Positions 1-47,459 of a DNA stretch of 64,000 bases are shown here, one piece after another. Source of the stretch: Deltaproteobacteria bacterium (lineage in GTDB: Bacteria > Desulfobacterota > Binatia > HRBIN30 > CADEER01). Each line of letters starts with the position of its first letter. The first letter of the stretch is position 1. A model generated the notes under the pieces. The model ran no database searches and was not told the origin of the DNA. It worked only from the letters and a program-made list of their open reading frames with translations. Position numbers and translations under genes: made by a program. The DNA lies in assembly GCA_033764095.1 (NCBI GenBank), contig JANRJF010000255.1:20154-84153 (forward strand), written 5' to 3'.

Positions 1-1
1 G

Positions 2-2020: not shown

Positions 2021-2102
2021 CCACGAACTTCCCCATGAGTGGCACTCGTAGGCGCAGCCGTGCGATTAGTTCAGATATGGCGCGTTCGAGAAGTAAGACA
2101 CG

Positions 2103-3245
2103 TCACACCACACGCGACTGCCCGTTAATCACCGGCATATCCAAGCTTCCCCGCCCAAGCGCCTTATATGTCAAACCGGTTCTCGGATCAACTAACGTCG
2201 TAGCGTCGCTATGGAGCTTCGGTCGAGTATAAATTAAACGCAGTGCCTCAACGTGGCGCAATGATAAGTATCGGTCACCGTAAAGCCTGCGAATTGCCTT
2301 GCGGACGATAGGAGCATTTATGGCGCTCATCGTGGGAAAGATATGATGTTCGACGTGATATCCAAATTGGAGATGGATTGATTCGATAAAAGCAGGCGCT
2401 CGCACGGACACTGTATTGACAAGCGGATCGTTGGCAGATGTCAATGGGGTTAAGTAGTGGTTTGTGGCGATGTAGGACATTACAAGGGTATTTGCTGCTA
2501 GGGCGGGGACCACGACCAAGTAGGCGAAGTGTACAGGACCGAGGCACAGAAGCAGCAAGAGCCAAATACAAATCATGCTTCCCGTTTCGCAACAGACTCG
2601 CCGGAGAGAAATGCGCTTGTAGAACCCCCTTCGCATACTTTGCTTCAACAATACGACCCAAGCAACAACGGCGAAATGCGTGGGGAGGTAAAACCAGCTG
2701 GCAGTAGTCCCGGAGCCGGGCGCGATGGACTCCATAACCTTCAGGTAAGGGGTGCGCTCCCATAGATGAAGCGTACCGAAGTGATCGGTATCACCCATTA
2801 CATGACCCGTGTATGCGTGGTGGGTTTGATTATGCCACGCAACCCAGAACGTCGGAGACGTACAATATGGCAGCAGGCCAATGTATCCGACGATATTTTC
2901 GACGAGTCGGCTGCCCACCACGGCGTGATGCATCGTCTCATGGGCAAGAAACGTTATGCAGCCCCAACTGTGTCCCGCCAAAAGGCCGAACGGAACGGCC
3001 AACCACCAAGGCAGGTTGAGATACAATACGAGAACCGCCAGTGTGACAATGACCGTAAGATGTACCGCAAGCCAGGCCAACCGCACGGGGCGCCGTTGAA
3101 AAATCTCAGGAGGCAACTCTGCTCGGAGCTGCCGCGCGTATTCGTGCATTGTGGTAAGGCGCGCGCTTGAACCAGCAACATCCCTGCTGCCCGCATCAGC
3201 TTGCATTGGGGAGACGTCCATTTGACCGGATATAGATAGAACCAA
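2103..3245 (-). CDS. membrane-bound fatty acid desaturase family protein
   Basis: Three histidine boxes typical of integral-membrane desaturases (HETMHH, HNQTHH, HVEHH) plus several hydrophobic helices. The annotated start at 3245 is TTG; internal ATGs at ~3221 and ~3206 are possible true starts. Confidence 0.8.
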   Translation of the reverse strand: MVLSISGQMDVSPMQADAGSRDVAGSSARLTTMHEYARQLRAELPPEIFQRRPVRLAWLAVHLTVIVTLAVLVLYLNLPWWLAVPFGLLAGHSWGCITFLAHETMHHAVVGSRLVENIVGYIGLLPYCTSPTFWVAWHNQTHHAYTGHVMGDTDHFGTLHLWERTPYLKVMESIAPGSGTTASWFYLPTHFAVVAWVVLLKQSMRRGFYKRISLRRVCCETGSMICIWLLLLLCLGPVHFAYLVVVPALAANTLVMSYIATNHYLTPLTSANDPLVNTVSVRAPAFIESIHLQFGYHVEHHIFPTMSAINAPIVRKAIRRLYGDRYLSLRHVEALRLIYTRPKLHSDATTLVDPRTGLTYKALGRGSLDMPVINGQSRVV

Positions 3246-4515
3246 GCAAAAGACAGGAATTCACGCCGCCGTAGCCGTATCCGGTAACCAGTACGTTTTT
3301 CACGGATCGAGCCGTTGGCACGACCGGGAGGTTCGCCGTCAGATCACCCACTGCCGCCTCCCGAAGGTTTGTATTGGGCGGAACAATCTGGGTCGAAATG
3401 GCCAATGAGCCGGCGGCAACCTGAAAGGCCCCTGAAGCCCCAAATGGATGCCCAAGGACCCCTTTAATTGAGCTAATTGCTGGCGCTGACCCTGCCCCGC
3501 GCAGAGCGATCCTGAGAACCGCGCTCTCCTTGTCATCGAATGTCGGCGAAGAGTTTGCGTGGCTGCAGACGTAATCGATGTCTTTGGCCGATAAGCCGTA
3601 CCTCGACAGTAGTCGGAAGATTCCCTGCGCGGCCACATCGCCAGTCTGATCGATACGGTAGAGGCCCTTGGCATCGCACGAAGACTCACCCCCCAGAACC
3701 TCCGCCAACGGGGCGCCGGCCCGCTCAGCAGCTGCTGCGGCTTCCTCAAGCACGACAAAGCAGGCCCCTTCACTTAGCACGATTCCGGAATGCCTGCGGT
3801 CGAATGGACAAGACGAAAGACTTGGATCCTCGTTGAGCGTCGAGAGTTCCTGGGTTCTGCAAAGCGAGGCGAAGACGCTGGGACTCAATGGGGCCTCGGC
3901 GCCACCCGCGACGCAGAGGTCGGCTACACCCGCCTGAATCAGCAAGCTTCCTAGGCGGATTGCCTCCAATGCAGACGGGCACCCGTTCGCGATGGTCAAT
4001 TGCGGTCCTTGAGCGCCCAGTAGAGCTGCCACCTCTGCCCCCGGCCCGTGGCTAGCCGCTCCACTTACGATAAACGGATTGATCCGCCTGGCACCCCGCT
4101 CCAACATGAGGCCCACCTGAGCCTCAGCATCGGCCCAACCAGCCACCGCAGTCCCTACTACGACTGCTCTCCTGGACGGCGCATACGCACCTTCCTGCAA
4201 CCGCGCGTCCTCTGTCGCCAGCGCGGCCGCGGCGAGGGCGAACTGCGACACCCGGGGCGCGGTTCGAATCGTTCTGGAAGTCAGCAGAGGGAAAAACTCG
4301 TCGTCGGCGACCTGCCCGGCCACTCGGCACGACAAGGAGGAGGCGTCGAATCGGTCAATCGCGCGGATCGCAGACTTTCCCGAGAGAAGCGCCTTCCACA
4401 ACGCGCCCCTGCCTACGCCCACAGGCGCAACCGAGCCGATTCCGGTGATCACCGTCCGCCGTGCTGGGCTCGAAGGCCCCGGGGGAATCGCGCTTTCCAC
4501 AGGGAAACGCTTCAT
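3196..4515 (-). CDS. beta-ketoacyl-[acyl-carrier-protein] synthase (KAS I/II family)
   Basis: N-terminus RRTVITGIGSVAPVG is the classic KAS start. Full-length ~439 aa thiolase-fold condensing enzyme. Start lies 14 nt after the ACP stop. Confidence 0.85.
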   Translation of the reverse strand: MKRFPVESAIPPGPSSPARRTVITGIGSVAPVGVGRGALWKALLSGKSAIRAIDRFDASSLSCRVAGQVADDEFFPLLTSRTIRTAPRVSQFALAAAALATEDARLQEGAYAPSRRAVVVGTAVAGWADAEAQVGLMLERGARRINPFIVSGAASHGPGAEVAALLGAQGPQLTIANGCPSALEAIRLGSLLIQAGVADLCVAGGAEAPLSPSVFASLCRTQELSTLNEDPSLSSCPFDRRHSGIVLSEGACFVVLEEAAAAAERAGAPLAEVLGGESSCDAKGLYRIDQTGDVAAQGIFRLLSRYGLSAKDIDYVCSHANSSPTFDDKESAVLRIALRGAGSAPAISSIKGVLGHPFGASGAFQVAAGSLAISTQIVPPNTNLREAAVGDLTANLPVVPTARSVKNVLVTGYGYGGVNSCLLLGSIYIRSNGRLPNAS

Positions 4516-4528
4516 CTCGGATAGGCTG

Positions 4529-4783
4529 CTACCTTACGCCGGCAGCACACCCATGTATGTATTCGATTATGAGGCCGAGTTCGTTAAGCTCAATTATACG
4601 AATAGGATCTAGCTCGACATCGAACCTCTCTTCGAGCGCAACCTGCATCTCGACGAAAGCAACCGACTCCATGACGACATCCCTCTCTATCGTGGCGCGC
4701 TCATCGAGGGAAAGAGTTGGATCCTGCCCAAACTCCTTCAGCAACTGAAAAACGTACTCGGCAACCTCCTCACGACTCGGCAT
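4529..4783 (-). CDS. acyl carrier protein
   Basis: 84-aa product from an internal ATG (MPSREEVAEYVFQLLKEF...ERDVVMESVAFVEMQVALEERFDVELD). Four-helix ACP pattern with a phosphopantetheine-type Ser in the ESV motif. The upstream part of the 138-aa ORF is probably non-coding. Confidence 0.7.
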   Translation of the reverse strand: MPSREEVAEYVFQLLKEFGQDPTLSLDERATIERDVVMESVAFVEMQVALEERFDVELDPIRIIELNELGLIIEYIHGCAAGVR

Positions 4784-5060
4784 CTGAAACCTCGCGACGC
4801 CGGCCGCGAAAGCTCCGAGTCGTATCCCAAGAGTGCTGCACCGGGCGCCCTCCAGCGCCTGGGAGACCACCTCCCCAGAATGATCGCGCGTCTGGCAATG
4901 GCGGTCGCTCCAACTTTCGCGAGGTAGGTCCAGGATTTGGAACAACTGGCATCATTGACGGCTGAAGTCACGCTGAGTTACGCTTCGGGCCGGCGAGAAG
5001 TCAAGGCGATCTCCTTGGCTCCGCGAAGAACGACGCCAGCAGAGGCAACGAGACGCAATC

Positions 5061-5675
5061 GTGCGCAGCCGGACCATGCCGATAAGCACAAGAGATCTGC
5101 TCAAGGAGTTTTCGTTCAAGGTCGCCGTAGGACCTGACATTGGACCCGCCGTGAACCTCTTTCGACAGGTATATGAGGCTGACGTTGGCTTTGTGCCATC
5201 CGATGGAATGGACGATAGCGCTACCTACCTCATCGCCAAGTGCACCGATGGAGACGTCGCTGCTACATTGCGATTCCTCGGACCAGAGCATCGTCCCTTC
5301 GTGTTCGAAAAATCTTGTGAGGTGGCCCTTCCAGACGGCAGCAGGCCTGCCCTATTGAGCCGCTTTAGCGTGTCGCCGCTATTTCGCGCGGCTCCCCGCT
5401 CGATTGCGCTGCACTTTGGGATGTTGAAGCTTGCAGTCGAATTTGCGCTCCCCTTGGGCGTTACCGACCTTCTTCAATACACCCAGCCGCATCTCATCAA
5501 TTTCTACCGTGCTGCGTTCTTCGAAGCCACGGGTGTGACCTTTGAGTTGCCCCCCTTGCAGAGCAAGATGCATGTTCTTCGCCTCAACTTGCGCACGCTC
5601 GATGAGCGCTGCCGAGCCTCTAACTCCCGCGGCGCAGAGTTCCTTCGTTCTCCTGATCGAATTGTGACCCCGTAA
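5061..5675 (+). CDS. LuxI/FeeM-like N-acyltransferase (autoinducer synthase / N-acyl amino acid synthase family, GNAT fold)
   Basis: LuxI-family landmarks: R..VY....GF (equivalent to R24-F28-W34), acidic DGMDDSATYLI, RFLGP, LSRFSV (the E/L-SRFAV motif), GVTDLL...FYRAAGF. Size ~200 aa. Stop is 3 nt before the histidine kinase start. Confidence 0.6.
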   Translation: MRSRTMPISTRDLLKEFSFKVAVGPDIGPAVNLFRQVYEADVGFVPSDGMDDSATYLIAKCTDGDVAATLRFLGPEHRPFVFEKSCEVALPDGSRPALLSRFSVSPLFRAAPRSIALHFGMLKLAVEFALPLGVTDLLQYTQPHLINFYRAAFFEATGVTFELPPLQSKMHVLRLNLRTLDERCRASNSRGAEFLRSPDRIVTP

Positions 5676-5678
5676 GTA

Positions 5679-7772
5679 ATGCTCCCTTCCTGGTTCGTAC
5701 CCCTAGTGGCAGCCCTCGCAACGGCCGCGCTGGGCGTATTTGTCGCAGTGAGGGGACCGCGAGGCGAGCTGCGCGCCGCGTTTCTGTTTTTCGCCGCCAC
5801 CCTCGTCTTCTGGCACTGCTTTTATCTCGTTCTTTATTTGATACCCGACTACCAGACTGCCTTCGAGGGCGCTCGAATTCTTAGAGTCGGATCCTTCTAC
5901 ATGGTCGCCGCGGTCCTGCATCTTGCAGTTTCGGCGCGAGCAAGACCAAGGCGTCTTTGGCGGTGGATTGTCATTGGCAATTACGCTCTCGCCACCTCCT
6001 TCGTTGTCGCCAATGTATTTGACGTTTGGGTGAAGGAGCTTAGGCGAACCGACGCCGGATACGTCACAGTCGGCACGCGCTGGTACAGCATTCTGAGCCT
6101 CTACGCGTTGCTGAACTTTCTCGTCGCAATATCACTTTCGGTTCGTGACTACTGGATCACGAGGGACCCGCGGGTCAGACAGCAGGTAGGCTTTTGGCTC
6201 GCGGGCATGCTGGTCGCGCTCCCCCTCGGACTCACTAATTTCCTACCTGTTTACGGGGTCGAGTTTCCCCCGCTAGGCAATCTTGGAGCGGCCCTTTGGA
6301 CCGGAATCGTGGCGTACGCGATCGTCCGCCACAGATTGATGGACATCGACGTATTTGTCACCAAGGGGCTCGCTTACGCAGCAGTTACTCTTGTCTTGGT
6401 GACGCCAGCAATCGCAGTGTCAGTTATCCTACAGTGGTGGGCGTTCCGTGCGGTCGACTATGAATTTACGGCGGCGCTCGCGGTCCTGTTCTTGTCGATT
6501 GCCGTTTGTTTTCCGCTGGTTGTGTTCAGTGCCGAAGAGCGCCTGCAACGATCGCTGTTTCGCGCCCGCACCCAGACGCGTCGAGATCTTGCCGCCTTCT
6601 CCCGCAGCATGGTCAAAATTCTCGATAGACAAAGACTGATGGCGGAGATCTGCAACCGGCTGCACGATCTTCTCGACGTCGAACGGGTTGCAATTTACCT
6701 CTTGGATTCTTCAGGTACGCGGTTGGAACTTCGGAAGAGCCAAGGAACCCATGCAGAAACGACGGAGTTTGGGAGTCAACATCCGTTTGTTCGGTGGCTC
6801 GGCCGCCGATCCGAACCGTCGCTTCGCGAGGATGCGGAGGGGCTGGATACGGTGCAGGCAGTCTTTGTCGAGCAAGGGTGGGAGGTCTGCTTACCGATGC
6901 ATAGCGGACGTCAAATGCTCGGATTCCTAGCACTTGGGGCTCGGCATGGGAGGCAAGCGTTCGCGGGGGGCGATCTTGAGCAGTTGGCGGCTATCTCTGA
7001 CGAGGCGGGGGTCGCGTTTGAGAACGCTCGCCTGTACGAAGAGGTCCGGCGGTCCCGTGCAATCATTGATCGCACGAGCAGGCTCTCCTCGCTGGGAACC
7101 TTGGCCGCCGGGATTGCCCACGAGATCCGGAATCCTCTTGTATCGATCCATACGTTCTTCCAAATGGCGCCGACTCGACTCGGCGACGAAGAGTTCATGA
7201 CTTCATTCCTAGGACTGGCGGGAGAGGAGGTGCAGAGAATCAGTAGTTTGGTTGACGAGCTACTGATCTTTGGGAAATCGACGACGACGAATCCGACCGA
7301 GGTGCAGCCAAACGAGGTCGTCGATCGCGGCCTGGCCTTGCTAGCGCCACAGGCGCGTCAGAAGAATGTGACGCTCGATCGAAGTCTCTCAGAATCCCTC
7401 CCCCCCGTTCTGGCCGACGGCGATCAGTTGCTTCAGGTGCTCGTCAACCTGCTCCTGAATGCGATCCAAGCTACTTTGAGCGGCGGTCGCGTCACCGTCG
7501 AAACGCGCCTGATCACGGATGAGACGGGAGAATTCTGCCAGATCGAAATAGTCGACACGGGAGTCGGAATTCCCGCATCGGTTCGTGAAGCGATCTTCGA
7601 TCCCTTCTTTACAACGAAGGACCGTGGAACCGGTCTGGGCTTGTCCGTCGCGCATCGTATCGTCGCCGAATTTGGTGGGTTCCTCTCGGTCGAAAGCGCC
7701 GAAGGCCAAGGAAGCCGATTCAGCGTCAACCTACCTGCGTGCCGTAATCTGGAGTTTCCAGCTGGCGCTTAG
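5679..7772 (+). CDS. sensor histidine kinase: N-terminal ~7TM integral membrane domain, GAF domain, HisKA and HATPase_c (PrsK-like architecture)
   Basis: About seven hydrophobic helices in the first ~300 aa. GAF-like region (VAIYLLD...GFLALG). H-box LGTLAAGIAHEIRNPL. N/G1/G2 boxes (LLLNAIQA, DTGVGIP, GTGLGLSV). No receiver domain. Confidence 0.85.
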   Translation: MLPSWFVPLVAALATAALGVFVAVRGPRGELRAAFLFFAATLVFWHCFYLVLYLIPDYQTAFEGARILRVGSFYMVAAVLHLAVSARARPRRLWRWIVIGNYALATSFVVANVFDVWVKELRRTDAGYVTVGTRWYSILSLYALLNFLVAISLSVRDYWITRDPRVRQQVGFWLAGMLVALPLGLTNFLPVYGVEFPPLGNLGAALWTGIVAYAIVRHRLMDIDVFVTKGLAYAAVTLVLVTPAIAVSVILQWWAFRAVDYEFTAALAVLFLSIAVCFPLVVFSAEERLQRSLFRARTQTRRDLAAFSRSMVKILDRQRLMAEICNRLHDLLDVERVAIYLLDSSGTRLELRKSQGTHAETTEFGSQHPFVRWLGRRSEPSLREDAEGLDTVQAVFVEQGWEVCLPMHSGRQMLGFLALGARHGRQAFAGGDLEQLAAISDEAGVAFENARLYEEVRRSRAIIDRTSRLSSLGTLAAGIAHEIRNPLVSIHTFFQMAPTRLGDEEFMTSFLGLAGEEVQRISSLVDELLIFGKSTTTNPTEVQPNEVVDRGLALLAPQARQKNVTLDRSLSESLPPVLADGDQLLQVLVNLLLNAIQATLSGGRVTVETRLITDETGEFCQIEIVDTGVGIPASVREAIFDPFFTTKDRGTGLGLSVAHRIVAEFGGFLSVESAEGQGSRFSVNLPACRNLEFPAGA

Positions 7773-8148
7773 AGCGGTGGTTAATCCGAACCGCGAGTTG
7801 GACGGGTTCGGCAAACAACGGGCGGCAAGCGGGATACCGGCGAGCGCACGCTTTGGGATGCCGTGCATCCGGGGCGGCGCTGGAGCGAGTTCCAGCCGAT
7901 TCGCGGCCACGGTGCTCGCCAATTGGCGACGCGGCCAAGACGTGCCGTCGCCGCCGCAAGTCGCCAGGACCAAGCAGCGTTCCAAACGTCAGATATTGAA
8001 CGATGGCATCATTCCTGACGACATCTTCGAAGAGCCGGCCGACGACGCCGACAACGACTCAAACCCGGATACTTAGCCTCAAACCCGGACAGTCCCTCGC
8101 CCCTAGGTCGATTGATTCCGGGCGCGGGGCCTGCGAGAATAGGGTTCT

Positions 8149-8658
8149 ATGCCGCGCGCTGGTAAGGCTGAATCGTTGTTCAAGGTTGGAGAGAAGGTCG
8201 TCTACCCTGCACACGGAGTCGGCGTAATCCAGAGCATCCAGACCAAGGTCGTCTCCGGGACCGAGAAGACGTTTTACATGCTGAAAATCCTGGACAGCGA
8301 CATGACCATCATGATCCCGACCGAGAACGTGGCCTCCGTGGGGCTGCGGCGGGTGATCGGGCGGGAAATGGTCACCAAGGTCTACAAGATCCTGCGCGAG
8401 AAGCGGGTCGAGATCGACCAACAGACGTGGAACCGGCGCTACCGGGAGTACACCGAGAAGATCAAGACCGGCTCGGTCCTGGAGATCGCCAAGGTGCTGC
8501 GCGACCTGTTCGTGCTGAAGGGCGACAAGGAGCTGTCCTTCGGCGAACGGAAGATGCTGGATACGGCGCGCAACCTGCTGGTCAAAGAGCTCTCCATCGC
8601 TCGCTCCCACCCGGAGGAGAAGATCATGGAAGAGCTCAAGAACATCTTCGCCCACTGA
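8149..8658 (+). CDS. cdnL: CarD/CdnL family RNA polymerase-binding transcription factor
   Basis: FKVGEKVVYPAHGVGVIQSI, the CarD_CdnL_TRCF N-terminal RNAP-interacting domain. 169 aa. Immediately upstream of ispD, as in many Actinobacteria and Myxococcota. Confidence 0.9.
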   Translation: MPRAGKAESLFKVGEKVVYPAHGVGVIQSIQTKVVSGTEKTFYMLKILDSDMTIMIPTENVASVGLRRVIGREMVTKVYKILREKRVEIDQQTWNRRYREYTEKIKTGSVLEIAKVLRDLFVLKGDKELSFGERKMLDTARNLLVKELSIARSHPEEKIMEELKNIFAH

Positions 8659-8693
8659 CCGCCGGGCGCGGCGCCGTCTGACGGCCCCTTCAC

Positions 8694-9380
8694 GTGTCGA
8701 TCGTCGCGATCGTCGTCGCCGGTGGCCCCGGCAGTCGCCTCGGAGCCGACGTCCCGAAGGGGTTCGTCCGCCTCGCCGGCGAGGCGCTGATGGCGCGCTC
8801 GCTGCGCGCCATGCTGGCGTCGCCGGTGGTGAGCCGCGCGGTGGTGGTGGTGCCGCCCGGCCACACCGACGAAGCCAAGGCACTGCTGGAGTCGGCGCGC
8901 GACGCGCGCCCGCTGCTGGTGATCGAGGGCGGCGTGGAACGGCAGGACTCGGTGCGCAACGGCCTGGCCGCGGCCGGCGATGCCGACGTGGTCGCCATCC
9001 ACGACGCCGCCCGGCCGTTCGTCAGCCGGGCGGCGGTCGACGACGCCATCGCGACGGCTCGCCAATACGGCGCGGCCATCGTCGCCACGCCGGCCACCGA
9101 CACGATCAAGCTGGTGCATCCGGACGGCTGGGTCGAGACGACCCCACCGCGCGACCGCCTGTGGCTGGCGCAGACCCCGCAGGTCTTTCGCGCCAACCTG
9201 CTGCGCCGCGCCCACGCGCGCGCGCCACACAGTCTCGCCACCGACGACGCGCTGCTGGTCGAGGCGCTCGGCGAGCGCGTCTACGTCGTGCGCGGCAACC
9301 CGGAGAACCGCAAGATCACGACGCCCGACGACCTGCGCTGGGCCGAGGCGCTGCTGGCGCGCGCGCCAGCCCCTCGTTGA
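8694..9380 (+). CDS. ispD: 2-C-methyl-D-erythritol 4-phosphate cytidylyltransferase
   Basis: GTG start. IVAIVVAGGPGSRLG nucleotide-binding motif and IspD-family sequence throughout. Confidence 0.9.
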   Translation: MSIVAIVVAGGPGSRLGADVPKGFVRLAGEALMARSLRAMLASPVVSRAVVVVPPGHTDEAKALLESARDARPLLVIEGGVERQDSVRNGLAAAGDADVVAIHDAARPFVSRAAVDDAIATARQYGAAIVATPATDTIKLVHPDGWVETTPPRDRLWLAQTPQVFRANLLRRAHARAPHSLATDDALLVEALGERVYVVRGNPENRKITTPDDLRWAEALLARAPAPR

Positions 9381-10167
9381 GGCTGCCCGAGCGGAATCCC
9401 TGCAGGTCGACCGTCACGTAGCGGAAGCCGAGCGCGCGCAGGGCGGCCACCACCGCCTCGCGCACCGGCGGCTCGGCCAGACGGGCCACGTCCGCCGCCG
9501 GCACCTCGATGCGCGCGATCGGGTCGTGGACGCGCACGCGGCACTCGCGGAATCCGAGCCGATGCAGCGCCGCCTCGGCGCCGGCGACGCGGCGCAGCCC
9601 GTCGAGGGTGATGCGCGTGCCGTACGGGAAGCGCGACGACAGGCACGGGCTCGACGGCTTGTCCGCCGTCGGCAGACCGAGCTGGCGGCTGAGCCGCCGG
9701 ATCTCGTCCTTCGACAACCCGACCTCGGCGAGCGGATGGCGCACCGCGTGCTCCTCCGCCGCCTTCAACCCCGGCCGGTAGTCGCCGAGGTCATCGAGGT
9801 TGACGCCGTCGACGACCACCGCGATGCCGCGCCGATCCGCCTCGGCGCGGCAGATGGTATAGAGACTGCCCTTGCAGAAGAAGCAGCGGTTCACCGGATT
9901 GTCGGCATAGCCGGGAATGTGGAGCTCGTTGGCGTCGACGACGACGTGCTCGACGCCGAGCGCCTCCGCCAGTACGCGCGCCATCGTCTCGTCGGCCTCC
10001 GGCGCGGTGGGCGAACGCGTCGTCAGCGCGACCGCCGCGGCGCCGAGCTCGGCGTGCGCGACCTGCAACAGGAAGCTCGAGTCGACCCCACCGGAGAAGG
10101 CGACCACCAGCGGCCCGAGCTCGCGCAGCAGGGCGCGCAACGCGCTCAGCTTCGCATCGGCATCCAT
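9316..10167 (-). CDS. PP-loop ATP pyrophosphatase, LarE-like (TIGR00268 family) sulfur transferase
   Basis: PP-loop SGGVDSS, conserved CFFCK, ~283 aa. Start codon abuts the cysK stop (TGAATG). The 3' end overlaps the ispD 3' end by ~65 nt (convergent). Confidence 0.75.
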   Translation of the reverse strand: MDADAKLSALRALLRELGPLVVAFSGGVDSSFLLQVAHAELGAAAVALTTRSPTAPEADETMARVLAEALGVEHVVVDANELHIPGYADNPVNRCFFCKGSLYTICRAEADRRGIAVVVDGVNLDDLGDYRPGLKAAEEHAVRHPLAEVGLSKDEIRRLSRQLGLPTADKPSSPCLSSRFPYGTRITLDGLRRVAGAEAALHRLGFRECRVRVHDPIARIEVPAADVARLAEPPVREAVVAALRALGFRYVTVDLQGFRSGSLNEGLARAPAAPRPSAGRRAS

Positions 10168-38923: not shown

Positions 38924-40126
38924 TTACGGCATCGTGATGAAGTCCGGCGTGGCGCGCTCGCCCGCCTGATGGATGTTGAATGCCGTCGTGGCGCGCACCG
39001 TCCCCAGATCGTTCGGATCGGTGCGGTAGAACTCCTCCGCCACGCCGAGCAGGCCGTTGCCGTGCAGCGGCGAGCCGTCATCCACACCGCGGATGCGAGT
39101 CTGGCCGGTGAGGGTTCCGGAGACATAGGCGCTGAACACCGAGAACTGGCAGCTGTTGGAGGTCGGATCGTCGTCGAAGATGGCGCGATCCTTACCGGTG
39201 CCCAGCGAGCACAGTTCGAATTCCTTGAAGCAACGCACAGGACGGCTGGCGGAGAAGCGCTGCTCGAACTCGTTGAAGACCAGGAACTGCGCGGTCGTGC
39301 TGAACAGTGCGACGTCCTGCAGGAGGAAATTCTGCGAGCACGGCACCAGCGTCAGGTGCGTCTTGACATACTGGTTGCTGACCGGTTCGACCGCGTCGTC
39401 GAAGAAGTGGTTCAGGATGAGAACGTTCGGGCAGCCGTTGTACTCAGGATCTTCGCCGCCCAGAACCAGCGTGTTGTCGCCATCGTTGGCGCCGGCGATC
39501 GCCTGGATGCCGATGCCGTTGTAGGCGCGCGCATCGATCGAGCTGTCGTCGTAGGTGATGATCGACACTTCGGCCTTGACGTCATTGCGATCGACCGGTG
39601 CATCGTCCGGGCCGACCTGGACGCACTTGAGCTCGCCCATGAACGGGTCTTCATTGACCGCCGGAACCGAGCCCTCCTGGCCGGCATCAGCCAGCGGCAT
39701 CGAGGTGAGCCCTTCGCTGATGCGCCAGATCAGGGGCTGATGCGGCGTCATCGTGATCTCGAAGTCGGTCTCGATCCAGCCCTCGAAGCACAGCCCACCC
39801 GGGATCGGCGTCTGGCAATCCGCCGCTACCGAGCAGACCCGCGACGGATCGTTGGTGCAGTGCGAGTTCGCGTTCACGTAGAAACAACGCATCTTGACCG
39901 CCTGGTCCGATACGTTGGTGATCTGAATCTCGGTGTCGACCGGGTCGCCGTTACCGGTCAGCACACCGAGATCACCGTCGGAGTCGAAGATCAGCTTTGG
40001 GATGACGATCAGGCCAGCCGGCCGATCAGAGGTCACGTCAGCGCGCGAGGCCCCCGCCGTCAACATCAGTCCGCCGAGGATCGCCAGCGCGCCCGCGAGG
40101 ACAGGATTACGCTTCACCGTACGCAT
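38924..40126 (-). CDS. secreted Cys-rich hypothetical protein, paralog A
   Basis: ATG (MRTVKRNPVLAGALAILGGLMLTAGASRA signal peptide) preceded by AAAGGAGAAGGG. ~400 aa. Paralogous to the next gene. Confidence 0.7.
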   Translation of the reverse strand: MRTVKRNPVLAGALAILGGLMLTAGASRADVTSDRPAGLIVIPKLIFDSDGDLGVLTGNGDPVDTEIQITNVSDQAVKMRCFYVNANSHCTNDPSRVCSVAADCQTPIPGGLCFEGWIETDFEITMTPHQPLIWRISEGLTSMPLADAGQEGSVPAVNEDPFMGELKCVQVGPDDAPVDRNDVKAEVSIITYDDSSIDARAYNGIGIQAIAGANDGDNTLVLGGEDPEYNGCPNVLILNHFFDDAVEPVSNQYVKTHLTLVPCSQNFLLQDVALFSTTAQFLVFNEFEQRFSASRPVRCFKEFELCSLGTGKDRAIFDDDPTSNSCQFSVFSAYVSGTLTGQTRIRGVDDGSPLHGNGLLGVAEEFYRTDPNDLGTVRATTAFNIHQAGERATPDFITMP

Positions 40127-40179
40127 TGCCCTTCTCCTTTCAACCGTCAGGGAGAACCCAGCCACAACCACTTCCGCGC

Positions 40180-41424
40180 TCACAGATCCGGAAGCGTGAC
40201 CTTGTCCACGACCTCGCCACCGCTGGCGGTGAATCGATCACCTTCCATGTGGATGTTGAGCGCGGCGCGGGTCAGGTTGCCCGACGAATCGGCGCGAGTC
40301 ACTCCGGCGACGCCGAGCACCGCGCCGCCATCCGGATTCGGGATGATGCGGGTGTGGGCGGCGACAGTCCCCAGGGAGCCGAAGGAGAACACGGACTTCT
40401 CAGGATTGTTCGGGCTGTCGACCTCGAACAGGTAGAAGTTCTTCCAGCAATCGACGGTCGTGCTGGCCGAGAAGACCTGCTCAAACTCGTTGTAGATCTT
40501 GAACTGGACCGTCACGCTGGCCGGCGTGGCGTTCTCGAAGTCCTCGGTGCACGGGATCAGCGTCAGGTCGGTCAGAGAGGCGCTGACCAGATCGATGTCG
40601 CCGGCCATGTTTTCGATCTGCGGCGGGTTGTTGCACACGCCCGTGCAGTCCGCATCGCTGTAGCACGGCGTATTGACCGGTGCGCTGCAGGTGCCGCCCC
40701 GGAGGTTGGCGTACAGCACGGGATCGGTAACGCCCTCCGAGAGGTGGTTGAGGAGCAGGACGTTCGGGCAGGCGTCGTACTGACCGACTGCTTCCTCGGC
40801 TTCCAAGGGCTGGTTCAGCAGCAACTCGTTGCCGGTCTCGCCGGCGAGGTCGGTGCCCTGGATACCAATCGCATTGTACTTGGAGACGTCGTTGTCGGCC
40901 GAGATCAGCGTCGCCTCACCCTTCAGATGGTTGCCGCCGATCGGATTGCCGGCGACGTCCACCTCGACGCACTTGAGCTCGCCGACGAAGTCCTCCAGCA
41001 CCGGCGGGACAGCTCCTGGATCGATACCAGCATTCGAGCATTGCGGGCTCGGCTGATAGCGACCGTCCGAGCTAGAGCAGACGTCGGTCGGATTGACGAA
41101 GCGACCGGTGCTCACCTGCCAATGGGTCGGCTGCTGCTTGGTGAGCCAGATGGTGAAGTCGGTCACCTGCCATTGCGGGATTCCGAAGAAGTCCGGCGCG
41201 GCATTCACATAGAAGCAGTGCGCGTGCACCATGTTGTTCGAAATGTTGGTAATTTGGATGATGGTGTCACCATCTTCCGAATTGGCCAGGACCTTCGGGA
41301 AAGCGAGGATCGATGCTCCCCTCTCCGTCGTGACGGCCGCGTGCGCGGTGCCGGCCATCATCCCCAGCGCCACCGCGACCCCGCAGAGCCCTGAGAGAAA
41401 AGCATTCCGCTTCTCCGTTCGCAT
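40180..41424 (-). CDS. secreted Cys-rich hypothetical protein, paralog B
   Basis: ATG (MRTEKRNAFLSGLCGVAVALGMMAGTAHA signal peptide) preceded by GAAAGGAGGAGGG. ~414 aa. Shares motifs with paralog A (IQITN.S, CFYVNA, GELKCV.V, NGIGIQ, CPNVL.LNH, FNEFEQ.FSAS, NIH). Confidence 0.7.
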   Translation of the reverse strand: MRTEKRNAFLSGLCGVAVALGMMAGTAHAAVTTERGASILAFPKVLANSEDGDTIIQITNISNNMVHAHCFYVNAAPDFFGIPQWQVTDFTIWLTKQQPTHWQVSTGRFVNPTDVCSSSDGRYQPSPQCSNAGIDPGAVPPVLEDFVGELKCVEVDVAGNPIGGNHLKGEATLISADNDVSKYNAIGIQGTDLAGETGNELLLNQPLEAEEAVGQYDACPNVLLLNHLSEGVTDPVLYANLRGGTCSAPVNTPCYSDADCTGVCNNPPQIENMAGDIDLVSASLTDLTLIPCTEDFENATPASVTVQFKIYNEFEQVFSASTTVDCWKNFYLFEVDSPNNPEKSVFSFGSLGTVAAHTRIIPNPDGGAVLGVAGVTRADSSGNLTRAALNIHMEGDRFTASGGEVVDKVTLPDL

Positions 41425-41755
41425 TGCCCTCCTCCTTTCCAGTCGGCCGAGACTCATACCTCACTCCCTTGCATTCGAAACCAAGACGCGGCCGCGCTTT
41501 TTTTGGACGCGGCTGCAGAAGTGGCGCGTTACATACTCAAAATTCAAACACATTGTCAAGGGAATATCGGGCGTTGCACCGCGGCGTACGGACAAACCGT
41601 TCATGTCCGACTATTCCGCGTCACTGGATGAGCGCCCCTCGCTTGCGGCTCAGCCTGCCAATGCCCGTCCCCTCTCCCTCTACCGTTTCGGTGGGCGCTT
41701 AGATCACGTTTCGCCGAACCGGTCAAATGCAAAACCGGGGACGAGATGTACGCAA

Positions 41756-43090: not shown

Positions 43091-43282
43091 TGCGTTCTGC
43101 GTGCCTCCGCCCGGATTCCCCCCCGGCGGGAGCGATGATTTCCCGCCAGGCCATTCGTCATACCGTCGCCGGCAGCGCAAAGAAAGCTCGATCCTGCCGC
43201 ACAAACGACAACGGGGGGCGACCCATTCGGATCGCCCCCCGTCGCCGATTCAGGCCTTCGAGTGGCCTGACTTCTCGCGTTC

Positions 43283-44209
43283 TCAGTTGCGCCGACGGAC
43301 CCAGAGCAGCAGTGCCGGCAGCAGCAGGAGGGCAGCGGCTGAACCGTTGCTCTCGCGCGGCGAAACGACATTGCAGCCGTCGTCGTTGTCGGTCGGCGTG
43401 CGCACACCGATCGTCGGCGTGCGCGTCACCGTGTGCGTCGCCGTCGGCGGCACCGTCGAGGTGATTGTCGCCGTCGCGGTCGGCGTCCCCGGTCCGGACG
43501 TGTCGGTCGCGGTGGCGGTGGCCGTCGGCGTTCCCGGCCCGAAGGTATCGGTCGGAGTGGCCGTCGCGGTCGACGTGGCTTCCGTCGGCGGGGTGTCCGT
43601 CGGCGTGGCAGTCGCGGTCGCCGTAACTGGAGGCGTCGAGGTGACCGTCGGCGTTGCCGTCGGCAGCTGATCCACGATGACGATCGAGCCCCCGCGCGTG
43701 ACGACTGGGATCTCCTGTCCCTCCTCGTCGCCGAGGAAGGGCGACTCGATTTCCAGCGCCACCGTGCCGGTCGGCACGCCCGGCTTGATCAGGAAGTCGC
43801 AGGTCGCAAGGTCACCGTTGCCGAGCGGCGGCAGCGGATCGGGCGTCCCGGAGACGAAGATCTCCAGGTTGAGAACCCCGGGCTCGAGGATACGGCCGCC
43901 GATCGCGTGCGTATCGGCGATGCGCTCGGCGACCGAGCAGCTGTCGGCGACCGGCACGAAGAACTCCAGTTTCTCCGCGTCGAACAACAGATCCATCCCG
44001 GCGCTGACGGCGTTGTCCTGGGCGCGATCCAGTGCCAGCGTCACCGACACCGTCCCGCCCGGCACGCCAGTGCCACCGGTGACCGACAGTTCCGGCAACT
44101 CGATGCCCGCGTAGGCTCGCGTCCCGACCCCTACGAGCATCAAGGCACTGAATGCGGTGGTCGCCAGTCCCATTCCCCAGAGTTGCCGCGCCATGCTGGT
44201 GCGCATCAT
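43283..44209 (-). CDS. cell-surface protein: signal peptide, cohesin-like domain, Thr/Pro-rich linker, C-terminal GC-TM-RRR sorting signal
   Basis: Start ATG-ATG with AAGGAGAGG SD. Cohesin-like pattern (TGVPGGTVSVTLAL...MDLLFDAEKLEFF...CDFLIKPGVPTGTVALEI...GGSIVIV). TATATATPTDTPPTEATST... linker. Terminal GCNVVSPRESNGSAAALLLLPALLLWVRRRN. Confidence 0.75.
   Translation of the reverse strand: MMRTSMARQLWGMGLATTAFSALMLVGVGTRAYAGIELPELSVTGGTGVPGGTVSVTLALDRAQDNAVSAGMDLLFDAEKLEFFVPVADSCSVAERIADTHAIGGRILEPGVLNLEIFVSGTPDPLPPLGNGDLATCDFLIKPGVPTGTVALEIESPFLGDEEGQEIPVVTRGGSIVIVDQLPTATPTVTSTPPVTATATATPTDTPPTEATSTATATPTDTFGPGTPTATATATDTSGPGTPTATATITSTVPPTATHTVTRTPTIGVRTPTDNDDGCNVVSPRESNGSAAALLLLPALLLWVRRRN
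43430..43665. repeat. imperfect tandem nucleotide repeats encoding the Thr/Pro/Ala-rich linker
   Basis: Reiterated gtcgcggt(c/g)gc(c/g)gt...cccggcccg units. The opposite strand reads as a VAVAVGV repeat. Confidence 0.5.
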
Positions 44210-44265
44210 GTCCTCTCCTTCCTTCCCGGTTGTGGTCCTCGCCCTACGCAGCGCCCCCGGTCGAA

Positions 44266-47010
44266 TCATGGACAGCCGAGATTGATGTTGTTGATGGCGA
44301 TGGTGATGTCGTTCGCCCGCACCCGTCCATCGCCGTTGAAGTCGGCCGCCAGGCACGCGTCGAGCGGCTGGGTGCCGTTGATGATGTTGACCATGATGGT
44401 GATCTCGTTGGCGCGCACGCGGCCATCGAGGTTGCAGTCACCGACGCATTCGCACTGATCGTTCACGCAGGCCTGGCGGTCATCCAGGCACTGGCCCGGC
44501 CCGGCCATCGGTCCGTCGCACTCGATGATCGGACGGCACTCGTTGCCCTTGCACTCCGTGCCCGAGGGGCACTCATCCGGCTTCGTGCACGGCGGACGCG
44601 GCTTGATCTCGAGCTCGCCACCACTCACCTGCGCGTCAAACGGGTTGGCGCCCGGATCAGCGATCTCGAGACGGTCGAGATCGTACAGCAGCTGGCTCGT
44701 GCTCGGCGACGCCGCCGGCGCAATGCGGAAGTTGCACTGCCAAACCGGCCCTGAGCCGAAGGAGTCGATCGGCGGCATCTTGTCGATCACCGCAACGCGC
44801 AGCCGGCCCAGACCCGGCGGATTGGTTGGCACCTGCGGCAGCTGCACCTCGGCTTCGAAGGAACCTTCCTGCAGCATGCGCGGATGCAACGTGCAGGCCG
44901 GCGTACCGATCGGGACTTCCAGCAGGGAGAGGTCGTAGAGAATGTCCACCTGCGCGGTGGTGATGTCGTCGCCGCCGGCAAGGCCGATATTCACCGTGAC
45001 GTACTCACCCGGGATGCCGGTGATCTTCGGCACTTCGATGGTGCGGGTCTCGCTGCTGCGGTCGAGCGCGTAGATCAGCGGCGACCCCTCGCCCGGGCAG
45101 CCGAGGCCGAGGTTGTTGACTGCCAGCGTGATGTCACCGGCGGTCACCTCGCCGTCCTGGTTGATGTCGCCCGCCGGGCAGATGCCGATACCGCATCCGC
45201 CACCGACGATGCAGACCATCTTCGTGATCTCACTGCCGAAGACGATACCGTCCAGGTTGCAGTCGCCGCCGCACTCACAGATCCCCTCCAGGCAGGTTTC
45301 ACGAATGCCGCGGCATTCGATCTGACCGTCGGGGCACGGCCGCGGCGGCACGCAGACCATGGCGCGGCACTGCGTCCCCTCCGGGCAGTCCTCGTCGACC
45401 ACACAGGTCGGCAGCGGCGTCGGCGTCACCGTCGGCGTCGACAAATCGCGGCAGACACCGTCGACACAGAACAGACCAGACGGGCAGTCTTCGGTCCTGT
45501 CGCAACGGATCGTCGGCGTCGGCGTCGGCGCCTCCACGCACACGTCGTCGGGGCCGCACACCTGCCCAACCGGGCAGTCGGTGTCACGCTGACACGGAAT
45601 CCTACGGGTGGGTGTCGGCGTCGGCGGCGGTGTATCGGTCTTCGTCGCCGTCGCTTCCACCGTCACGTTGGCGCGGATGTAGGCGTCGAGGTAGCCCTGC
45701 GTGTCGGCCGGCACCAGGTTGGTCGCCAGCGACTGGAACGCAACCCAACCGCCGTTGAGACTGATGCTGGGCGGCAGGTCAGGCACGCTGCCGTTCGCCG
45801 GCAGACCATCGACGCTGGAGCTCACCAGGGTCGTGGTCTGCTGCTGCAGGTCGCGCACATACACCTGCGAGTTGCCGTTGGTAGTCACGCCCGCCAACAG
45901 GTTGCTGGCGAACGACCCGAAGGCGACGAAACGGCCGTCGCCACTGATGCTCGGCGGAATGGCGATGTCGTTGCCCTGCTGGCCCATCTCACCGACGCTG
46001 ACGCGCTGCGTCTCGCCGCTCGTGCAGTCGTGCACGAAGACGTCGGCCGCCTGGTTGGTGTCGCCGGCGACCAGGTTGGTGGCGTTCGACTTGAACGCGA
46101 CGATGGTCCCGTCGGCGTTGAGGGCCGGCAGGAAGCTCATCTGGTTGGCCTCGACCCCGGCGCTGCTGACGCTGGCGCGGCAGTACACGGCGCCGTCACA
46201 GGCCACGTAGATGTCGATCACGCCGTTGGTGTCGGGCGACGAGGGGAGCAGGTTGGTCGCGCCGGAGGCAAAGGCGACACAGCGACCGTCAGCGCTGATC
46301 GACGGGGCCACGCTCGGGCCGTTCGCCTGCACGCCGCCGGGTCCGACACTGATCAGCGTCGTCGTGCCGGCGCTGCGGTCACGGACAAAGACGTCGGAGG
46401 TCTGGTTGGTGTCGTCAGGCACCAGATTGCTCGCGACGGAATGGAACGCCACCAGGTTGCAGTTGCTGTTCACGCTGGTGAACGAACTGCCGCCGTCGGT
46501 GGGACCATCGATCCCGACGCTGATCAACTCGGTGGTGGATCTCGTCAGGTCACGCACGTAGACGTCGGTGCGCCCGTTGGTGTCGTTCGGCACCAGGTTG
46601 GTCGCGTCGGAACTGAACGCCACGCAGGTGCAGTCGCTGTCGATCGACGGACGGAACCGCTGCGCCTGACTCGGCCCGTTCGCCGCCTGGCCGCTCGAAT
46701 TGACGCTGACGCGCGTGGTCTGCTCCGCATCGCGGTTGTAGACATACACGTCGGTGAAACCGTTGGTGTCGTTCGGAACCAGGTTGGTGGCATCCGAGTA
46801 GAACGCGACGCAGCGGCCATCGGCGCTCGGCACCGCGCCGCTGCTGTTGCCGTTCGGCTGGCCGCCGCTGGCGCTGACGCTGACCAACTCGACCGGCGGA
46901 TACGGATTCAGCGGCGCGGTCTTGGCCACCTGACCGGTGAGGGTCAGCACGGCAACGAACACGCCCACTCCACACAACGCAACGGTGACCGCTTTTCGTC
47001 CGGCGTTCAT
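44266..47010 (-). CDS. large secreted multidomain protein: 7x PD40/TolB-like beta-propeller repeats, Cys-rich modules, cohesin-like domain, two dockerin (type I-like) modules
   Basis: ATG at 47010 with GGGGAGGTG SD. Signal/TM AVTVALCGVGVFVAVLTL. Seven ~44-aa repeats S.DGR.VAF.S.A.NLV..DTN...DV.V.D. Modules C..D.DCP.G..C....C. Dockerin pairs GDCNLDG.V...EIT.MV / GDINQDGEVTAGDITLAVNNLG and DCNLDGRVRANEITIMVNIING / DFNGDGRVRANDITIAINNINLG. Cohesin-like GIPGEYVTVNIGLAGG...VDILYDLSLLEV. Confidence 0.8.
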   Translation of the reverse strand: MNAGRKAVTVALCGVGVFVAVLTLTGQVAKTAPLNPYPPVELVSVSASGGQPNGNSSGAVPSADGRCVAFYSDATNLVPNDTNGFTDVYVYNRDAEQTTRVSVNSSGQAANGPSQAQRFRPSIDSDCTCVAFSSDATNLVPNDTNGRTDVYVRDLTRSTTELISVGIDGPTDGGSSFTSVNSNCNLVAFHSVASNLVPDDTNQTSDVFVRDRSAGTTTLISVGPGGVQANGPSVAPSISADGRCVAFASGATNLLPSSPDTNGVIDIYVACDGAVYCRASVSSAGVEANQMSFLPALNADGTIVAFKSNATNLVAGDTNQAADVFVHDCTSGETQRVSVGEMGQQGNDIAIPPSISGDGRFVAFGSFASNLLAGVTTNGNSQVYVRDLQQQTTTLVSSSVDGLPANGSVPDLPPSISLNGGWVAFQSLATNLVPADTQGYLDAYIRANVTVEATATKTDTPPPTPTPTRRIPCQRDTDCPVGQVCGPDDVCVEAPTPTPTIRCDRTEDCPSGLFCVDGVCRDLSTPTVTPTPLPTCVVDEDCPEGTQCRAMVCVPPRPCPDGQIECRGIRETCLEGICECGGDCNLDGIVFGSEITKMVCIVGGGCGIGICPAGDINQDGEVTAGDITLAVNNLGLGCPGEGSPLIYALDRSSETRTIEVPKITGIPGEYVTVNIGLAGGDDITTAQVDILYDLSLLEVPIGTPACTLHPRMLQEGSFEAEVQLPQVPTNPPGLGRLRVAVIDKMPPIDSFGSGPVWQCNFRIAPAASPSTSQLLYDLDRLEIADPGANPFDAQVSGGELEIKPRPPCTKPDECPSGTECKGNECRPIIECDGPMAGPGQCLDDRQACVNDQCECVGDCNLDGRVRANEITIMVNIINGTQPLDACLAADFNGDGRVRANDITIAINNINLGCP

Positions 47011-47386: not shown

Positions 47387-47459
47387 TGGAGCTGAGCGGA
47401 GTCGAACCGCCGACCTCCTGAATGCCATTCAGGCGCTCTCCCAACTGAGCTACAGCCCC
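47387..47459 (-). tRNA. tRNA-Ala (anticodon GGC)
   Basis: 73-nt cloverleaf: GGGGCTG/CAGCTCC acceptor stem with the G3:U70 Ala identity pair. D-arm GCTCAGTTGGGAGAGC. Anticodon loop ATGGCAT. T-arm GGCGGTTCGACTCCGCT. Discriminator A, no encoded CCA. Confidence 0.9.

Follow-up and report, generated by a model that had tools for sequence, protein, structure and literature searches.

A cohesin protein with a C-terminal Cys-type tail

We analysed a 64-kb stretch of DNA (hereafter the window) from a bacterium deposited as "Deltaproteobacteria bacterium" and focused on a minus-strand gene whose product carries a cohesin module and ends in a tail made of a Cys motif, a hydrophobic helix and an Arg cluster. 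Comparison with related sequences indicates that this tail is a real, conserved and reusable C-terminal sorting signal of the MYXO-CTERM (invariant-Cys) kind. The gene and its immediate surroundings comprise the following features, all on the minus strand and numbered in window positions:

43283..44356, minus strand: open reading frame (ORF) with the tail, ending in DDGCNVVSPRESNGSAAALLLLPALLLWVRRRN and then a stop codon
43283..44209, minus strand: gene of the 308-aa cohesin protein with the C-terminal sorting tail; stop codon at 43283-43285
44108..44209, minus strand: Sec-type signal peptide, residues 1-34 (MMRTSMARQLWGMGLATTAFSALMLVGVGTRAYA / G), read from the sequence
43676..44092, minus strand: cohesin module, residues 40-178 (Pfam PF00963, PDB profile matches, AlphaFold, Foldseek)
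43388..43669, minus strand: Thr/Pro-rich disordered linker (stalk), residues ~181-274 (AlphaFold, homologue alignment)
43358..43384, minus strand: signature motif D-D-G-C-N-V-V-S-P, residues 276-284, with the invariant Cys279 (position statistics of 183 tails)
43298..43339, minus strand: hydrophobic transmembrane helix AAALLLLPALLLWV, residues 291-304, with the invariant Pro298 and the near-invariant Trp303 (AlphaFold and conservation)
43286..43297, minus strand: Arg cluster RRR plus Asn (sequence; Arg positions 79-98% conserved)
43206..43270, minus strand: two GC-rich hairpins, the first 13 nt past the stop codon (RNA fold; a consensus scan flags part)

Translation likely starts at the ATG at 44209 (MMRTSMARQLW), which is preceded by a GGGGAGG ribosome-binding site, and the 308-aa product is identical to NCBI MDX2168825.1 from a metagenome-assembled genome (MAG) labelled "Deltaproteobacteria bacterium". 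More than 100 homologues of ~300 aa were retrieved. A first-pass annotation of the DNA had described a Cys, a spacer, a hydrophobic helix and an Arg cluster at the C-terminus, placed in the span 43283-43380, which comprises the stop codon and the last ~32 codons and begins at G-C; the ORF translation bears out this architecture.

At its N-terminus, the protein has a signal peptide with a basic n-region, a hydrophobic core and A-Y-A ahead of Gly35, without a lipobox Cys. The AlphaFold model places a helix at residues 16-26 in this region, and the signal peptide is predicted to be cut before Gly35. An N-terminal lipoprotein was ruled out because the first 90 residues contain no Cys. The module that follows scores 27.7 bits on Pfam PF00963 (gathering cutoff 24.1), and the family profile matches solved cohesins in the PDB at E 6.6e-6. 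In the AlphaFold model it forms a beta-sandwich with a predicted local distance difference test (pLDDT) score above 93, for which the best Foldseek matches were the type-I cohesins 6kgc, 1g1k and 5nrm (target-normalised template modelling score 0.77-0.83; E 1e-12 to 1e-10 for 6kgc and 1g1k). Both the hidden Markov model (HMM) match and the predicted jelly-roll fold, which resembles that of solved cohesins, place the module in the cohesin family. Two of its residues, C91 and C137, are invariant in the homologue alignment, which fits an exported module with a disulfide bond.

Between the cohesin module and the tail lies a linker with pLDDT below 50 and no secondary structure, and the disorder in the model spans residues ~181-289. 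Linkers of orthologues vary in both length and sequence, so that only their T/P composition is kept and they are otherwise not alignable. The tail helix covers residues 291-307 in the model and is directly preceded by N-G-S-A-A-A; the RRR cluster behind it is the predicted cytoplasmic stop-transfer end of the sorting signal. Past the stop codon, the hairpin pair folds at -56.4 kcal/mol (z = -6.6 versus shuffles), with a second stem of 19 bp followed by UUUGUG, and is probably the terminator of a transcription unit that also includes the dockerin gene described below.

The tail is conserved and reused on unrelated proteins

In order to describe the tail position by position, we compiled statistics from 183 distinct related tails. 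The Cys is conserved in 100% of them and is preceded by G or S in 93%, with Asp at positions -2 and -3 in 68% each, and is followed by V or I at +2 (94%), Val at +3 (63%) and Pro at +4 (60%). Further downstream, the helix Pro is likewise invariant (183/183), with Leu three residues ahead of it in 93% and Ala directly behind it in 93%. A Trp stands at +5 or +6 from this Pro, one residue ahead of the Arg cluster, whose central Arg is kept in 98%. The spacing between Cys and helix Pro is confined to 17-21 residues, and all but four of the tails (179/183) contain a single Cys, whose column is also invariant in four separate alignments (A1-A4). Homologues keep the tail down to ~40% overall identity, and the linker adjoining it is hypervariable. 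Because Cys and helix Pro are invariant and RRR and Trp near-invariant beside such a linker, this pattern of substitutions indicates that the tail is under selection. A profile built from the tail only scores the target tail at 64.7 bits (E 3.6e-13 for 1.84e9 sequences), which argues that it is not a chance feature.

The same tail-only profile retrieved 106 clusters at E<=1e-3 from 1.84 billion representative proteins, and in 92 of 98 re-scored matches the tail lay no more than 12 residues from the C-terminus. Besides the ~300-aa cohesin family and proteins with single or double cohesin-like modules, the passengers included FG-GAP (P0165, P0201), BNR (P0169), SBBP/NHL propeller (P0176) and CHRD (P0190) proteins, so that the tail, judged from these matches, is a modular cassette reused on unrelated passengers. 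Outside the family of the target, a second flavour prevails, NDDDGC[AQ]VVAP.....GW[LM]LL[LI]PAAALLWxRRRSR. An alignment of the tail only, run against an index of 5.8 billion proteins, returned six short fragments; candidate retrieval through a word index fails on this short sequence, as the profile itself scores the family at 55-77 bits in a local hmmsearch.

At the DNA level, a strict pattern searched in JGI metagenomes found 27 loci, all with a tail of this type, which stood at the ORF end in 25 of them. In the other two, L132 and L153, the ORF continues for ~100 codons more. These encode a ~700-aa BNR/Sortilin-like beta-propeller with the tail GGDDGCAIAP...WLLVPALWLAWVRRRR (L153 1-2472, minus strand; L132 20-2638, plus strand), and the read-on may reflect an internal sorting signal as reported for MXAN_5598, or just a late stop codon. 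A 19-base degenerate pattern searched in genome contigs hit a true tail in one of the 120 loci listed (L033), the remaining matches among these being due to chance in GC-rich genomes. Within the window itself, a six-frame scan for a hydrophobic stretch followed by an Arg cluster and a stop returned this gene and two spurious antisense ORFs, making 43283..44209 the sole gene in the 64 kb with such a tail.

Host lineage and nearest known signal family

The window LeuA, used as a lineage marker, has relatives at 71-94% identity. Seven of the 12 organism-named relatives (71-83% identity) are from Candidatus Binatia bacterium, and the other five carry the labels of Deltaproteobacteria, Acidobacteria and Margulisiibacteriota MAGs; none of the best 120 LeuA matches was from Myxococcota. 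Named homologues of the tail protein were likewise from Binatia, Deltaproteobacteria or unclassified MAGs. The MAGs of two close homologues (P0032 and P0047) bear the names Mycobacterium sp. and Candidatus Dormibacteraeota; these labels are probably binning errors because the contigs are short (4-8 kb). The host is an uncultured member of Binatia and is probably a Gram-negative-type (two-membrane) bacterium. No paper in the literature searched names a "CTERM" signal of any kind alongside Binatia or Binatota.

The first-pass annotation had proposed a MYXO-CTERM- or PEP-CTERM-like signal, and running the respective HMMs supported the former and not the latter. When the full-length protein was compared with NCBIfam, only the MYXO-CTERM model TIGR03901.2 matched (16.9 bits, E 0.0063, cutoff 20). 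The isolated 38-aa tail reached 23.0 bits on TIGR03901 (cutoff 20) and 16.5 bits on the older GC_trans_RRR model TIGR03382 (cutoff 15.85). The protein had no match to the PEP-CTERM model TIGR02595 at E<=1. We extended the comparison to 60 diverse related tails: TIGR03901 matched 54 of them (E<=0.1), GlyGly-CTERM 12, JDVT-CTERM four, PEP-CTERM two (E>=0.043) and Synerg-CTERM one. In addition, several homologues had already been named 'MYXO-CTERM domain-containing protein' by JGI. With the top NCBIfam match, 54 of 60 tails and the JGI labels all pointing the same way, MYXO-CTERM is, on profile similarity, clearly the nearest known family. GlyGly-CTERM was rejected for the target tail, which scores 13.5 bits on TIGR03501 (cutoff 15.5) and has no Gly-Gly at the helix start; membership in PEP-CTERM, JDVT-CTERM and Synerg-CTERM was rejected on HMM and motif grounds. 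A caution for all such assignments is that other Cys-type signals score alike on the HMM and need curation, which is how JDVT-CTERM was found (doi 10.1101/2023.06.07.544157).

The MYXO-CTERM layout, that is C-terminal position, Cys in a signature, transmembrane helix and Arg cluster, is present in full. As in MYXO-CTERM proteins, the tail sits at the extreme C-terminus behind a disordered linker, consists of Gly/Ser-Cys, helix and Arg cluster, and is borne by many unrelated exported passengers. Unlike in MYXO-CTERM, the Binatia tail has a single Cys, an invariant helix Pro, a near-invariant Trp, an acidic DD before G-C, the motif C-x-[VI]-V-P and a Cys-Pro distance of 17-21 residues. Some of these traits recur in other Cys-type systems. 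Like the Binatia tail, Synerg-CTERM/MrtS and JDVT-CTERM/MrtJ combine one invariant Cys with a Leu-rich helix, and Synerg-CTERM also has an invariant Pro within this helix. However, Synerg-CTERM is shorter and its HMM matched only one of the 60 tails, whereas JDVT-CTERM, with four matches, carries a DP motif ahead of the helix; it is also a dedicated one-substrate system whose gene adjoins that of its protease, an arrangement not seen here.

A conserved dockerin-bearing neighbour

Directly upstream of the cohesin gene, across a gap of 56 nt, lies the gene of a second exported protein:

44266..47010, minus strand: ~914-aa exported PD40 beta-propeller/dockerin protein

This protein contains PD40 repeats (24.9 bits in Pfam) and Cys-rich EGF-like modules, together with two complete dockerin modules (Dockerin_1, 43.9 bits) and a weak cohesin-like segment. 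Its four Ca-loop repeats, at residues 583, 615, 858 and 890, are kept in the orthologues of L001 and L004. The dockerin/cohesin-tail gene pair was kept in all orthologous loci examined, down to ~42% identity. Six such loci from several MAGs and metagenomes (L001-L006) share a conserved gene order: RarA, the ~915-945-aa PD40/dockerin protein, the cohesin-tail protein, a nucleotide-sugar dehydrogenase, two ~420-aa exported proteins, an Fe-S/CCG protein and ETF.

A second, unrelated type of locus repeats the theme. In L154 (of the group L154-L159), two proteins with a dockerin at their end, an FG-GAP protein of 458 aa and a second protein of 307 aa, are encoded at 7461-9898. Directly downstream of both follows the gene of a 463-aa protein that combines two cohesin-like modules with the tail. 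Tail-anchored cohesin-dockerin pairs therefore seem, from these gene neighbourhoods, to be recurrent in these organisms. Because of the conserved two-dockerin neighbour and the L154-L159 repeat of the arrangement, we read the tail-bearing cohesins as cell-anchored scaffoldins, with the ~914-aa dockerin protein as the probable binding partner of the cohesin.

Other genes in the neighbourhood were noted in passing. The ~420-aa exported Cys-containing proteins are adjacent paralogues (38924-40183 and 40180-41457, both minus strand) without a Pfam or NCBIfam match, and the pair is found in the same place after the nucleotide-sugar dehydrogenase in L001, L002, L004 and L005. Just upstream of the dockerin-cohesin pair is a tRNA gene (47387-47459, minus strand), the sole Rfam match in the window.

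Proposed sorting pathway

We consider it fairly probable that the C-terminal ~33 residues form a tripartite, Cys-type sorting signal and represent a Binatia-specific version of the MYXO-CTERM class, with the pathway and scaffoldin role that this implies. Following export by the Sec signal peptide, the Leu-rich helix and the cytoplasmic RRR would retain the protein in the inner membrane with the cohesin on the periplasmic side. A lipid would then be added to the invariant Cys279, and an intramembrane endopeptidase would cleave just past the Cys and remove the helix. By analogy with the four Cys-type signals that have an assigned enzyme, this endopeptidase may belong to the CPBP/Rce1-type glutamic proteases and be a relative of the myxosortases. 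The lipidated protein would finally be carried to the outer surface, a step that requires the type II secretion system in Myxococcus, where the ~100-residue Thr/Pro stalk would display the cohesin for binding the dockerins of the upstream-encoded protein. The cohesin protein would thus act as a minimal scaffoldin that anchors a cohesin-dockerin system of a non-cellulosomal kind.

This proposal builds on what was observed, namely the anatomy of the protein, a conserved tail that is reused on other passengers, a cohesin fold, a dockerin-bearing neighbour kept across loci, and MYXO-CTERM as the best match. Lipidation, cleavage and surface transfer are modelled on published Myxococcus xanthus work, in which MrtX, a CPBP/Rce1-type protease, cleaves MYXO-CTERM in a Cys-dependent manner after presumed lipidation (doi 10.1101/2023.06.07.544157; Guo, Haft & Wall 2025, PMC11980579) and surface display needs the type II secretion system (PMC11980579; doi 10.1101/2023.06.07.544157). 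CPBP proteases, the glutamic intramembrane proteases to which the myxosortases MrtX, MrtC and MrtP belong, have been assigned to MYXO-, JDVT-, Synerg- and CGP-CTERM (doi 10.1101/2023.06.07.544157; PMC11980579). The suggested binding between cohesin and dockerin follows from general knowledge of cohesin-dockerin systems.

Several observations weigh against this proposal. The full-length protein stays under the TIGR03901 cutoff (16.9 versus 20 bits). MYXO-CTERM helices are described as lacking Pro and charged residues and the signal often has a GCGC motif (Haft 2023, doi 10.1101/2023.06.07.544157, Fig. 1 legend); the tails depart from both features, with a helix Pro in 183/183 and a single Cys in 179/183. 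A Binatia host also lies outside the range reported for MYXO-CTERM, namely Myxococcota, to which Bradymonadales were added later (Haft 2023, doi 10.1101/2023.06.07.544157). A second tail was not seen in the flanks of the loci examined, with the exception of L138, a short metagenome contig on which two different tail-bearing cohesin-like genes abut (291-1112 and 1130-1891, plus strand). In addition, neither a screen of multi-pass ORFs for the CPBP motifs EExxxR and HxxxN/D, applied to the window and 34 Binatia-like loci, nor the accompanying searches turned up a sorting protease, whatever its family, within the window or ~190 kb of related loci. Lipidation and cleavage of the protein, its exposure on the surface and its binding to dockerins are predictions.

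No exosortase, CPBP or rhomboid gene was found in the 64-kb window, whose multi-pass membrane proteins are a desaturase, a kinase, the Fe-S/CCG protein, PssA, RseP and CdsA. The Pfam gene tables of the orthologous and L154-type loci likewise contained no sorting-protease candidate, and none adjoins any tail gene. The class of the sorting enzyme is therefore derived by analogy, and we give a CPBP-type protease an even chance. That none turned up in these loci is absence of evidence, but it fits a housekeeping enzyme encoded at a distance from the proteins it processes; Haft describes MrtX as a housekeeping myxosortase of this kind, with many substrates (doi 10.1101/2023.06.07.544157).

Alternative explanations

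The missing enzyme would also suit a plain C-terminal anchor, in which helix and RRR simply fix the cohesin to the periplasmic face of the inner membrane and the protein is not lipidated, cleaved or exported to the surface, all the more as helix and Arg cluster suffice for stop-transfer. However, a plain anchor leaves unexplained why the Cys is kept in 100% of tails within D-D-G/S-C-x-V/I-V-P, 17-21 residues before the helix Pro, and why a 35-residue cassette recurs on unrelated passengers, and a ~100-residue stalk with a cohesin and exported dockerin partners fits surface display better; we regard it as unlikely. A processed signal might instead be served by a rhombosortase-like rhomboid, as for GlyGly-CTERM, or by a new enzyme family rather than by CPBP. 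The cognate enzyme of the tail is only predicted, 12 of the 60 tails weakly match GlyGly-CTERM (best E 2.5e-5) and small residues (G/S/A/T) stand ahead of the helix. Set against this, the target tail stays below the TIGR03501 cutoff, GlyGly-CTERM has no invariant Cys, and CPBP proteases serve all four enzyme-assigned Cys-type signals (doi 10.1101/2023.06.07.544157), which makes a rhomboid or new family rather improbable.

The idea of an exosortase/archaeosortase substrate, raised in the first-pass annotation together with a 'PrsK-like' kinase as a hint of such a system, did not hold up. It would mean a PEP-CTERM-type signal cleaved by an XrtA/EpsH-family enzyme under PrsK/PrsR regulation. The tripartite layout of motif, helix and Arg cluster is indeed shared with PEP-CTERM/XrtA, yet it is all that is shared, as the tail has no Pro-Glu-Pro, the protein fails to match TIGR02595 at E<=1, and only two of the 60 related tails match this model at all. 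The kinase in question is the following:

5679..7772: 7TM-GAF histidine kinase ('PrsK-like'; Pfam HisKA_7TM, GAF, HisKA and HATPase_c)

It is partly PrsK-like, with 125.8 bits on TIGR02916, but this is far under the cutoff of 300 bits and involves model positions 201-679 only, that is the generic GAF and kinase part, and it scores higher on AtoS (232 bits) and ZraS than on PrsK. Moreover, it lies 35 kb from the tail gene, and no PrsR-type neighbour was found, the adjoining genes encoding a weak FeeM-like and a CarD-like protein. The kinase gives no support for an exosortase system. No exosortase-like multi-pass protein was present in the window or the related loci, and exosortases play no part in the MYXO-CTERM pathway (doi 10.1101/2023.06.07.544157; PMC11980579). 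We thus consider an exosortase substrate extremely improbable and retain a Cys-type signal of the MYXO-CTERM class as the preferred explanation.

The kinase is part of a region (window 1-8000) with ~58% GC compared to ~70% in the rest of the window. Its genes encode a 657-aa protein without a family match, a DesB-like desaturase, KAS II (FabF-like), the weak FeeM-like N-acyl amino acid synthase and the kinase. The desaturase, KAS II and FeeM-like genes belong to lipid metabolism, and the region may be an acquired lipid-modification island.

Tandem LGT-family genes near a tail gene

At the second type of cohesin-dockerin locus, the tail gene is followed by fabI and two tandem LGT-family (PF01790) genes (L154-L159, L129, L130, L133/L134), the latter lying ~1 kb downstream of the tail-bearing cohesin-like gene:

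L154 12320-13893: tandem LGT-family genes
L129 6563-8214: tandem LGT-family genes
L130 687-2302: tandem LGT-family genes
L133 7750-9365: tandem LGT-family genes
L155, L156, L158 and L159: tandem LGT-family genes
L139 and L145: LGT-family gene in single copy

With 56% identity between them, the two copies score 84.6 and 87.7 bits, below the Lgt equivalog cutoff of 118.9, and the signature GRLGNFINGELWG of E. coli Lgt (5azb) reads GRIGCQLAGDGDYG in the LGT paralogues when aligned. That an Lgt-like acyltransferase acts on the Cys of MYXO-CTERM is a postulate of Guo et al. (PMC11980579). The LGT paralogues are a possible candidate for the Cys acyltransferase of MYXO-CTERM-type sorting, or their synteny is coincidental. 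Because the adjacency is seen in one orthologous-locus type only and not in the window, we treat it as a lead and not as evidence.

A related and more speculative possibility, which we hold to be doubtful, is that the Binatia tail ([DE]-D-D-[GS]-C-x-[VI]-V-P ... L-L-L-x-P-A-x-L-L-W-x-R-R-R) belongs to a separate fifth Cys-type system with its own intramembrane protease subfamily rather than being a drifted MYXO-CTERM. Such a system might also own a Cys-modifying enzyme, for which the divergent tandem LGT-family paralogues are the candidates. If true, this would point to the acyltransferase that is still missing from the MYXO-CTERM model.

Comparison with scaffoldins and implications

Cell-anchored cohesin scaffoldins include Ruminococcus flavefaciens ScaE, which is attached by sortase through LPXTG, and Clostridium thermocellum OlpB and SdbA, which are attached through SLH. 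The protein described here resembles cellulosome scaffoldins in that a single cohesin sits on a Thr/Pro-rich stalk with a C-terminal anchoring device and a dockerin-bearing partner encoded alongside. It differs from them in its probable Gram-negative-type host and in the use of a Cys-type tail as the anchor. Moreover, the dockerin partner is a PD40 beta-propeller without a recognisable glycoside hydrolase, and the system is therefore not a cellulosome. The tail-tied cohesin-dockerin pairs would rather be a non-cellulosomal analogue of sortase- or SLH-anchored scaffoldins.

Cys-type signals and their CPBP "myxosortases" were defined between 2023 and 2025 and have been described only from Myxococcota, Bradymonadales, Synergistota, a sporadic JDVT group and Thermococcales. 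Binatia are a widespread class of uncultured soil and sediment bacteria, and the clearly conserved, modular variant described here extends this system to them as a new lineage. With the tail as a clean sequence signature, surface proteins of Binatia can be predicted, and the collected tails form a comparative data set that may lead to the cognate protease and the Cys-lipidating enzyme.

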